DNA from: Escherichia coli
Lineage (GTDB): Bacteria; Pseudomonadota; Gammaproteobacteria; Enterobacterales; Enterobacteriaceae
Length of the DNA stretch: 64,000 bases
Assembly: GCF_009931435.1 (NCBI RefSeq)
Contig: NZ_CP043414.1
Reading direction: 5' to 3' (one strand)
The notes below the pieces were generated by a model that worked only from the letters and a program-made list of their open reading frames with translations, was not told the origin of the DNA and did not search any database. How positions within the stretch are numbered: the first letter of the stretch is position 1; each line of letters begins with the position of its first letter. A program made the position numbers and the translations under genes. This document shows positions 21,211 through 21,928 of this stretch, in pieces.

Positions 21211-21609
21211 TTATTTTCCGTGGCCAAAATTTAGAATTCTCCCATCATTTTTGCCTATTTCTATAATAAAAACCCCACCAGCAATTTGTTCTGATTGAAT
21301 GGTGCCTTCAACAATCCAACTTATTGGTAATTCCTTGATTTTGTATGGTTTTTCTTCTTCTGCGGCATCATGCCCATAACGATTCTTAACATATATCTCA
21401 GCTAATTCCAATGCTATGGATTTATTTTTAACCAAATTTCTAACGGTATATTTCCCCTCACTTTCATACTTGCGCATTATTATAATATTATTACACTGCG
21501 CCCATGTGTTGTATGTAAAAACAAACAAAGATACAATTACACAGGTTCTGAATAATATTTTCTTACACGTTGCCATGTATTCTGCAAACATTAGGCAATC
21601 CTTTTCCAT
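21211..21609 (-). CDS. Small predicted secreted protein of unknown function; candidate orphan immunity protein; full-length paralog of the 23112..23339 ORF
   Basis: AT-rich ORF; probable signal peptide MATCKKILFRTCVIVSLFVFTYNTWA; start codon ambiguous (ATG at 21609, 21576 or 21477); conserved block ALELxxxYVKxxYGxxxAExxKPYxI...GG.F.I.I.K.DG.xLNxxH.K shared with 23112..23339. Confidence 0.6.
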   Translation of the reverse strand: MEKDCLMFAEYMATCKKILFRTCVIVSLFVFTYNTWAQCNNIIIMRKYESEGKYTVRNLVKNKSIALELAEIYVKNRYGHDAAEEEKPYKIKELPISWIVEGTIQSEQIAGGVFIIEIGKNDGRILNFGHGK

Positions 21610-21928
21610 TTGTTATATCTTTCCCATGATTATCTATTGCTTTAAAATTTTCACCTATTGACCTTGAATTACTAAAATCACTTCCAGTGAAATCTGAGTT
21701 ATTCAGAATAGCATTCATCAGAGCCGCATTGCGAAAGACAGCATTTCTAGTTGATGTATGTTGAATCATTACATTTCTTAAATGAGTTTTTTCAAATTTC
21801 GCCCCATCAAGACAATAACCATTGAGGATGGCACGATGTAGATTCATCCCGCTAAAATCATATCCAGCAAGAGTGGTACTATCTATCTCAAGAAATTTAT
21901 TGGTTATTAAAAATGCGATTCTTATCAT
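21563..21928 (-). CDS. Pentapeptide-repeat protein (predicted right-handed quadrilateral beta-helix); candidate immunity / DNA-mimic protein
   Basis: Clear 5-residue periodicity: FSGMN LHRAI LNGYC LDGAK FEKTH LRNVM IQHTS TRNAV FRNAA LMNAI LNNSD FTGSD FSNSR; ATG at 21928 has GGAGGA 6 nt upstream (the track's 21940 start is TTG). Confidence 0.7.
   Translation of the reverse strand: MIRIAFLITNKFLEIDSTTLAGYDFSGMNLHRAILNGYCLDGAKFEKTHLRNVMIQHTSTRNAVFRNAALMNAILNNSDFTGSDFSNSRSIGENFKAIDNHGKDITNGKGLPNVCRIHGNV

Follow-up and report, generated by a model that had tools for sequence, protein, structure and literature searches.

A pentapeptide-repeat open reading frame in an Escherichia coli rhsB locus is an in-frame hybrid of a putative Rhs immunity gene and an RhsB-type toxin tail

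The stretch of Escherichia coli DNA analyzed here (64,000 nucleotides of contig NZ_CP043414.1; hereafter, the window) carries, on the minus strand of its rhsB locus, a 121-amino-acid (aa) open reading frame (ORF) composed largely of pentapeptide repeats. This ORF is an in-frame hybrid of the 5' part of a pentapeptide-repeat gene and the tail of an RhsB-type toxin. The pentapeptide-repeat gene occurs intact in other E. coli genomes, where it encodes a 161-aa protein directly behind a toxin tip termed CT_X, and sequence comparisons support it well as the cognate immunity gene of CT_X. The window ORF is quite likely a fossil of displaced modules, in which the front of the CT_X immunity gene was fused by deletion to an RhsB-type tip, and which is now probably dead. 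An earlier sequence-only reading of the same DNA had proposed a DNA-mimic immunity protein or a gyrase-protective factor. The finding is real and more ordinary than first proposed, being a hybrid pseudogene from two neighboring orphan modules. The analysis establishes the chimeric anatomy of the ORF, the β-helix predicted for its residues 1–91 and the pairing of CT_X with pentapeptide proteins in four lineages.

A mis-annotation is avoided if the ORF is treated as a hybrid pseudogene within an array of Rhs orphans, and not as a Qnr-like resistance or DNA-mimic factor. In addition, CT_X and its 161-aa partner are defined as a putative toxin–immunity pair that occurs in Citrobacter as well as in about 3% of complete E. 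coli genomes, with a toxin domain that matches no described family.

Chimeric Anatomy of the ORF

The components of the ORF and of the DNA directly upstream are as follows.

21928..21563, minus strand: the ORF under study, a 121-aa chimera (from the ORF list; both parts confirmed by tblastn of the parent proteins)
21650..21928, minus strand: codons 1–93, the 5' 58% of the 161-aa pentapeptide-repeat gene (parent WP_000618048.1; tblastn, alignment, Pfam and structural model)
21638..21652, minus strand: recombination junction, a partial-identity patch GTGnnAAnTTT common to the pentapeptide gene and the rhsB tip (three-way DNA alignment)
21563..21649, minus strand: last 28 codons and stop of an RhsB-type toxin tip (NFKAIDNHGKDITNGKGLPNVCRIHGNV, then the stop), with 85% nucleotide identity to the rhsB 3' end
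21934..21938, minus strand: GGAGG Shine-Dalgarno sequence, 5 nt upstream of the ATG, inside the toxin-tail relic and conserved in the intact pair
21925..21963, minus strand: relic of the cognate tip CT_X, its last 10 codons (FPELDDWRNR) and stop (alignment with the rhsE-locus pair, tblastn)
21993..22040, minus strand: Rhs core-end relic, 97.9% identical over 48 nt to the rhsC/rhsB core (E = 7e-13)

When the two parents are compared with the window by tblastn, residues 1–97 of the 161-aa protein match 21928–21638 with 92.8% amino-acid identity (about 95% nucleotide identity by alignment), and residues 137–164 of BL21 RhsB match 21649–21566 with 85.7% identity; the two matches overlap at 21638–21649. 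BL21 RhsB ends in ...GNFKAIDNHGKEITNRKGLPNVCRVHGNM and the window ORF in ...ENFKAIDNHGKDITNGKGLPNVCRIHGNV. In an alignment with BL21 rhsB–yhhH, similarity is absent upstream of the tail and is continuous from the tail through the YhhH-family gene. The other end of the hybrid is illustrated by a 91-aa E. coli protein (P0005), which has MNAILNNSDFTGSDFSNSRSIG in common with the window ORF and then continues with further pentapeptide repeats.

In a sensitive nucleotide search of 5,426 complete E. coli genomes, the ORF is present in full in 273. About 2,700 others match only its final 87 nt, which there form the rhsB 3' end and overlap the yhhH start. The Prokaryotic Genome Annotation Pipeline (PGAP) annotates the nearest genome, which is 100% identical over the ORF, with two partial pseudogenes, one "missing C-terminus" and the other "missing N-terminus," and calls the chimera a pseudogene in most genomes sampled.

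The orphan Rhs module as a type of locus and the rhsB–yhhH tail are already well known. Orphan Rhs toxin-tip/immunity modules are left behind main rhs genes by C-terminal displacement, as in E. coli rhsA–E and the Salmonella orphan rhs genes. The window ORF region resembles these in consisting of a toxin-tip remnant and an immunity gene, but differs in that two adjacent modules are fused by deletion, running from the interior of the immunity gene to the end of the next tip. The module also lies downstream of the main rhs–immunity pair, is preceded by a core-end fragment and has no Rhs N-terminus, as is typical of displaced modules. In E. coli K-12 rhsB–yhhH, homology to the window covers the final 87 nt of the ORF (85% nucleotide identity), the gene downstream of it (higher identity in yhhH) and the way the two overlap. 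The RhsB tip sequence ahead of its final 28 codons is missing from the window, where the pentapeptide gene fragment stands in its place.

The start codon of the ORF is the ATG at 21928–21926, which the stop codon of the CT_X relic overlaps as ATGA; nine of the 10 relic residues are identical to CT_X by tblastn. Homology of the window to the CT_X–pentapeptide module starts only about 35 nt before the ATG. The core-end relic further upstream, which the sequence-only reading had noticed as a decayed Rhs core end, is confirmed as such. Its translation is LALISTERTTAWYAE and its counterpart, identified by translation and tblastn, is residues 1155–1169 of the window's own Rhs, a position about 65 residues ahead of the DPIGL core end in full Rhs. 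At another locus (L037), an orphan rhs fragment starts at the equivalent position, after a DUF6258 gene. The approximately 29 nt between the core-end relic and the CT_X tail (21964–21992, minus strand) match neither parent, and strain PEC1020 has an extra 18 nt there.

These relationships suggest the following history. All but 10 codons of CT_X would have been deleted earlier than the fusion or separately from it. A second deletion, with its crossover in the patch of partial identity (about 11 nt), would then have connected codon ~93, with the frame kept, to the final 28 codons of the neighboring orphan RhsB-type tip, at the cost of the immunity protein's conserved C-terminal 66 residues. The junction is a clean example of how deletions between adjacent orphan modules make in-frame immunity::toxin hybrids.

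Pentapeptide Repeats and Predicted Fold

The ORF had been described as showing strict five-residue periodicity over at least 13 repeats, and this is upheld by both residue shuffling and Pfam. Residues 16–95 form 16 pentads, 14 of which have L, F, I, M or V at the center, a count equaled by none of 20,000 residue shuffles. Among the three Pfam models tested (PF00805, PF13599 and PF13576), residues 18–89 match Pentapeptide_4 (E = 2.6e-7), Pentapeptide (E = 1.1e-5) and Pentapeptide_3 (E = 8.8e-4). The family hidden Markov models and the pentad pattern thus agree in placing the ORF among pentapeptide-repeat proteins. The periodicity ends at residue 95; residues 96–121 are not pentapeptide repeats and constitute the RhsB-type toxin tail.

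The quadrilateral β-helix proposed from the repeats is predicted with confidence by an AlphaFold2 model built with family members, in which the predicted local distance difference test score (pLDDT) is 75–92 for residues 1–91 and these residues show the short-strand pattern of a repeat-five-residue helix. The prediction of this fold is confined to residues 1–91, as residues 92–121 have pLDDT below 50 and are modeled as disordered. The best 50 Foldseek matches of the model in the PDB are all pentapeptide-repeat proteins or domains, including Rfr23, HetL, Np275, QnrB1, MfpA and AlbG. Overall, the window ORF consists of 95 repeat residues, corresponding to about 4.5 coils, followed by a foreign tail modeled as disordered.

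The Intact Pair of CT_X and the 161-aa Protein

Intact copies of the parent gene are found in the rhsE locus, flanked by pptA, yddH and nhoA. In 144 of the 5,426 E. coli genomes (about 3%), the start of the 161-aa gene overlaps the stop of an intact PAAR-Rhs gene as ATGA. CT_X is the 143-residue domain that follows DPLGLS of this PAAR-Rhs protein (WP_001563834.1), and CFSAN061763 is one of the strains armed with it. Searches with CT_X yielded three diverged lineages, in each of which a member of the pentapeptide family comes directly after the toxin tip.

Citrobacter (orphan tip): CT_X identity 56% overall and 70% in the core; partner of 163 aa, 66% identity; 4-nt stop/start overlap (ATGA)
L026: CT_X identity 65% in the core; partner of 163 aa from an MIRIAF start (168-aa called ORF), 66% identity; 8-nt overlap
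L041 (orphan tip in an orphan array): CT_X identity 63% in the core; partner of 153 aa, 22% identity; 1-nt stop/start overlap

The precomputed Pfam label is blank for the Citrobacter and L041 partners, and direct tests identify both as family members. The L041 partner aligns with the family end to end in hhalign (probability 97.9%, E = 5e-13), including the C-terminal W-P-x-x-F-x-P-x-x-H-G motif, and matches Pfam Pentapeptide_4 (E = 1.3e-5). A scan of small flanking ORFs with NCBIfam shows that the next orphan at L041 carries an Rhs core-end domain. The CT_X–pentapeptide pair is found in main-Rhs, orphan and insertion sequence (IS)-adjacent contexts and moves as a unit independently of the Rhs core. 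The test of toxin and immunity gene traveling together covers these four CT_X lineages (E. coli, Citrobacter, L026 and L041); most of what CT_X matched in a metagenome scan was identical copies from E. coli, and a scan of the genome collection returned eight loci, four of which contain true family members. A HMMER search with the 93-aa repeat part against 1.84 billion representatives returned mostly long, unrelated multi-repeat proteins, P0016, P0044 and P0067 being the only informative matches.

In the IS-adjacent context (L036), the CT_X relic is devoid of its most conserved block (...DGNVIVNGNHRMV...) and the 161-aa gene is intact. This locus (L036:2690–3373) is on a metagenomic contig, apparently of E. 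coli, where a full ISAs1 copy adjoins the CT_X relic; an internal in-frame deletion takes out the invariant DGNxIVxxNHRMV block, so that the toxin appears disarmed and the antidote kept.

Several lines of evidence point to the 161-aa gene as the cognate immunity gene of CT_X: its position behind the tip, the overlap of stop and start codons, its travel with the tip, its divergence, which in L041 is much faster than that of the toxin (22% versus 63% identity), and its survival after decay of the toxin. The sequence-only reading had proposed that the window ORF is the immunity partner of a lost toxin tip. This holds for the lineage of the gene, since an intact E. coli pair exists and each of the three diverged CT_X copies has a family member behind it; the parent is in a true Rhs immunity position, and the toxin in the window is down to 10 codons. 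It does not hold for the ORF itself, which is not an intact immunity gene, as its pentapeptide part ends at codon ~93 and is fused to 28 codons of an RhsB tip.

Direct toxin binding is the rule for almost all Rhs immunity proteins. By analogy, the intact 161-aa protein would neutralize CT_X by direct binding in the cytoplasm of the producer, possibly through a face or an end of the β-helix. The faster divergence of the immunity protein than of the toxin favors such lineage-specific toxin binding over protection of a conserved cellular target.

What chiefly holds back the rating of the immunity assignment is that relatives with 42–57% identity occur as solitary genes, away from any toxin, in Intestinirhabdus alba, Escherichia whittamii and Gilliamella. 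These weigh against the assignment in that they may reflect a toxin-independent role of the family, or may themselves be orphan immunity genes. The Intestinirhabdus alba relative lies between a methyltransferase gene and azlCD. In E. whittamii (L021:6001–6453) and Escherichia sp. E1V33 (L027:5001–5327), a member stands between yoaH and yoaC with no Rhs or toxin gene nearby; it is 150 aa long in E. whittamii and 108 aa in some assemblies. The Gilliamella member (L019:4802–6881, a metagenome-assembled genome) is a 160-aa protein with an isoelectric point (pI) of 9.0, encoded among four small same-strand ORFs (99, 134, 160 and 104 aa) with trp genes on one side and, on the other, a probable pssA whose 451-aa product has a PLDc_2 domain; this run may be an immunity island. 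An NCBIfam scan of the small ORFs flanking the Gilliamella and Citrobacter copies gave no matches.

Related Cases in the Literature

A literature search by accession and by topic found nothing on the pair of CT_X and the 161-aa protein, and the word "pentapeptide" does not occur in the text of the 2012 catalogue of polymorphic-toxin immunity proteins. Pentapeptide-repeat immunity is mentioned elsewhere only in passing (PMC5714182; preprint 10.64898/2026.07.13.738213). Stenotrophomonas rhizophila has Tsi6a, which is predicted to confer immunity to the PAAR-Rhs tip Tse6 and resembles a pentapeptide-repeat antitoxin of a type VII secretion system (preprint 10.64898/2026.07.13.738213). Like the 161-aa protein, Tsi6a is a pentapeptide-like protein encoded directly behind a PAAR-Rhs tip and proposed as its cognate immunity, but the toxin family and the organisms differ from those of the CT_X pair; the likeness is one of description, and the case for Tsi6a is mainly structure prediction. 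YjbI-like pentapeptide genes adjoin GH-E (His-Me finger) Rhs nucleases that lack a recognized immunity gene (Jablonska et al., 2017; PMC5714182). These loci are alike in that a pentapeptide-repeat gene adjoins an Rhs-family toxin, whereas CT_X has no His-Me finger or other recognizable signature, and the two pentapeptide groups are set side by side by description.

The CT_X pair offers a means of testing whether β-helical repeat proteins serve as toxin-specific antidotes, and how the toxin acts.

Functional State of the Window Copy

The window copy does not have parent residues ~96–161, the conserved C-terminal 66 residues, and so falls short of the gene completeness expected of cognate Rhs immunity. 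Of the 15 columns that are invariant in the family alignment, four (W146, F150, P152 and G156) fall in the missing part. By tblastn, neither CT_X nor an intact copy of the 161-aa gene is present in the window, nor was either found in the nearest complete genome. Having some 4.5 coils, a foreign tail modeled as disordered in place of a C-terminal cap, and a genome that is free of the cognate toxin, the window copy is probably a non-functional pseudogene remnant.

Sequence variation is consistent with decay after the fusion. Over codons 1–92, the ratio of non-synonymous to synonymous polymorphism (pN/pS) between the window copy and the intact parent is 0.22. Relative to the window allele, the PEC1020 allele of the chimera, which is the commoner of the two, has seven non-synonymous differences and a single synonymous one; all seven non-synonymous changes are derived in the PEC1020 allele, and one of them, F85C, is at a pentad center. 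This 7:1 split has P = 0.02 under a pN/pS of 0.22 and is compatible with neutrality. A frameshifted chimera allele also exists (P0003), and in PEC1020 the downstream YhhH-family gene is frameshifted as well.

Some observations weigh against regarding the window copy as dead. The initiation signals of the ORF, an ATG and a good Shine-Dalgarno sequence, are still in place. The window allele has zero polarizable amino-acid changes since the fusion and is the least decayed allele, which indicates that it is either young or still constrained. A four-coil β-helix might still bind CT_X from other strains. On this basis, the truncated chimera could be a partly functional orphan immunity protein that protects toxin-free strains against the approximately 3% of E. 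coli that fire CT_X. Such a role is doubtful, if worth keeping in mind. It would fit with the presence of the chimera in 273 of the 5,426 genomes, about 130 of which have no intact pair, with the initiation signals, with the predicted folding of residues 1–91 and with the absence of polarizable post-fusion substitutions in the window allele. However, the lost C-terminal motif includes some of the few invariant positions of the family, the common allele has a 7:1 non-synonymous excess that includes F85C in the helix core, and there are both frameshifted alleles and a PGAP pseudogene call in most genomes sampled.

The ORF might instead matter only as an upstream reading frame that translationally couples the overlapping YhhH-family gene, as in K-12 rhsB–yhhH. 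K-12 and BL21 rhsB–yhhH have a conserved counterpart of both the 3' 87 nt and their overlap with the start of the YhhH-family gene, and the fusion is in frame, as a random deletion would be one third of the time. We consider coupling unlikely as the explanation of the ORF, as the YhhH-family gene is frameshifted in the common allele (PEC1020) and the region has no promoter-like signal beyond shuffled-sequence expectation.

Nature of the Toxin and the Question of DNA Mimicry

The sequence-only reading had supposed that the lost toxin targets DNA and that the pentapeptide protein counters it by DNA mimicry, or else protects gyrase as do Qnr, MfpA and McbG. Neither DNA mimicry nor gyrase protection is supported. 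CT_X has no nuclease or DNA-binding signature in Pfam, NCBIfam, PHROGs or the PDB: searches with the family gave no match in NCBIfam, PHROGs, PDB sequences or PDB profiles, and none in Pfam even at E ≤ 10 for four members, bar one stray match of the Gly-rich N-terminus of a single CT_X member to C19orf12-like (E = 1.7e-3). The match in PADLOC is at chance level (E = 0.035), and an AlphaFold2 model of CT_X from a two-sequence alignment has pLDDT 35 and is unusable. The conserved core of CT_X is itself acidic (pI 4.4–6.1), which is unusual for a DNA-binding surface.

A ParB/sulfiredoxin-fold toxin (Tox-ParB of Zhang et al., 2012) was considered for CT_X and is retained as no more than a lead. 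The invariant block NHRMVAG (DGNVIVNGNHRMVAG in E. coli), which we presumed to resemble a DGxHR motif, is not borne out by hhalign: the probability against human sulfiredoxin, whose sequence was checked against the PDB, is 0.1%, although the shallow four-sequence alignment and the unusable AlphaFold2 model make this a weak test. In the L041 toxin (P0159; L041:1137–1643), DPLGL is followed by a glycine-zipper-like hydrophobic stretch, GAGAGAAVGGPLGAVVGGIIGAVAGVGLYFAA, that is not present in the E. coli and Citrobacter CT_X; this stretch may be a membrane-entry segment.

Nor does the charge of the pentapeptide proteins point to mimicry of DNA. In terms of bulk charge only, the window ORF has a pI of 9.1 and a net charge of +3, the parent a pI of 5.16 and a net charge of −5, and the family ranges from −7 to +4. 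NCBIfam models of topoisomerase protectors score the window ORF at 14–23 bits against cut-offs of 240–480, as listed.

QnrB: 22.6 bits (cut-off 460)
Qnr: 20.6 bits (cut-off 240)
QnrE: 19.7 bits (cut-off 480)
MfpA: 19.0 bits (cut-off 360)
SmQnr: 15.1 bits (cut-off 460)
QnrD: 14.1 bits (cut-off 425)

The solved topoisomerase protectors Qnr, MfpA, McbG and AlbG are about 180–220 aa long, with 8–10 coils and a C-terminal dimerization element; the window ORF has 4.5 or so coils, and the parent, at 161 aa, is shorter as well. What they share with the window ORF is the repeat: tandem A(D/N)LXX-type repeats and a right-handed quadrilateral β-helix, which in the window ORF is predicted. In contrast, the window ORF is far under the cut-offs of these families and shorter, charge is not conserved across its own family, the linkage of its parent gene is with an Rhs toxin tip instead of a gyrase-poison biosynthesis cluster or the mfp conservon, and it has no known connection with gyrase.

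A working DNA mimic, still active here, that occludes the DNA site of a nuclease-type Rhs toxin or protects gyrase or topoisomerase is accordingly improbable. In its favor are the common fold class with topoisomerase-protecting pentapeptide proteins, the mild acidity of the parent, the pentapeptide genes reported beside Rhs-type nucleases without a recognized immunity gene (PMC5714182), and the pentapeptide-like immunity protein of a PAAR-Rhs tip provisionally termed a nuclease (preprint 10.64898/2026.07.13.738213). Apart from the toxin features, charges and scores given above, it is opposed by the divergence of the immunity protein, which fits toxin-specific binding better, and by the loss of 40% of the protein from the window copy. 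We give an equally low chance to a bolder variant, in which the 161-aa family is an uncatalogued immunity class that mimics the nucleic-acid substrate of a new toxin fold or shields the toxin's target, with the truncated four-coil form cross-protective.

Pentapeptide proteins at type VI secretion system (T6SS) loci are otherwise known as accessory or effector parts, and a T6SS accessory protein of the TagA/TagB or Tvp kind that loads the Rhs effector, instead of conferring immunity, would have precedent among such known components; it is very improbable, since the gene follows the C-terminal toxin tip, including orphan tips without PAAR and Rhs shell, and is not carried along with vgrG, DUF2169 or the Rhs N-terminus; the rhsB-locus neighborhood contains none of these.

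Locus Layout and Neighboring Genes

The region of the window around the hybrid ORF is the E. coli rhsB locus, a series of minus-strand genes followed by yhhJ and rbbA on the plus strand. It is a typical array of displaced Rhs toxin-tip/immunity modules, made up of small AT-rich immunity genes and decayed Rhs core-end fragments between an Rhs–YbfC pair and an ISAs1 (H-repeat) relic. The neighbors of the ORF are as follows.

28348..24149, minus strand: full-length main Rhs (ORF list, PGAP annotation)
24152..23583, minus strand: ybfC (PGAP annotation)
23339..23112, minus strand: short NTF2-fold immunity gene (75-aa ORF)
22560..22159, minus strand: DUF6258-family gene, the upstream neighbor of the ORF (PGAP annotation)
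21609..21211, minus strand: YbbC/YhhH-family immunity gene, the partner of the RhsB-type tip that supplied the tail of the chimera (PGAP annotation; aligned with BL21 rhsB–yhhH)
20344–21121, minus strand: yibA-like relic and ISAs1 relic, at the distal end of the orphan array

Neither the rhsB nor the rhsE locus has vgrG, DUF2169 or PAAR spike genes as neighbors. A promoter and terminator scan of 20800–24300 gave nothing beyond shuffled-sequence expectation, and the GC-richer spacer 21941–22158, which is in part the Rhs core-end relic at 21993–22040, has no structured-RNA match in Rfam at E ≤ 1.

Beyond DSMGL, the main Rhs (24149–28348) ends in a tip of about 165 residues that is rich in proline, and ybfC (23583–24152) overlaps this Rhs gene by 4 nt. 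The NTF2-fold immunity ORF (23112–23339, minus strand) is preceded by a 243-nt gap and encodes 75 aa in the window, whereas its positional counterpart in strain PEC1020 has 90 aa. The DUF6258 gene is the immunity gene of a different Rhs tip and lies outside the pentapeptide module; at L037, it is directly behind a full-length Rhs. Upstream of this gene in the window is a second decayed Rhs core fragment (22628–22851, minus strand), which contains an internal stop and is 40–57% identical to residues 926–1004 of the main, full-length Rhs. At the distal end of the array (20344–21121), only 144 of the 378 aa of the ISAs1 (H-repeat) transposase are left, and residues 1–66 of an 85-aa ORF match a yibA-like HEAT/"lyase" gene.

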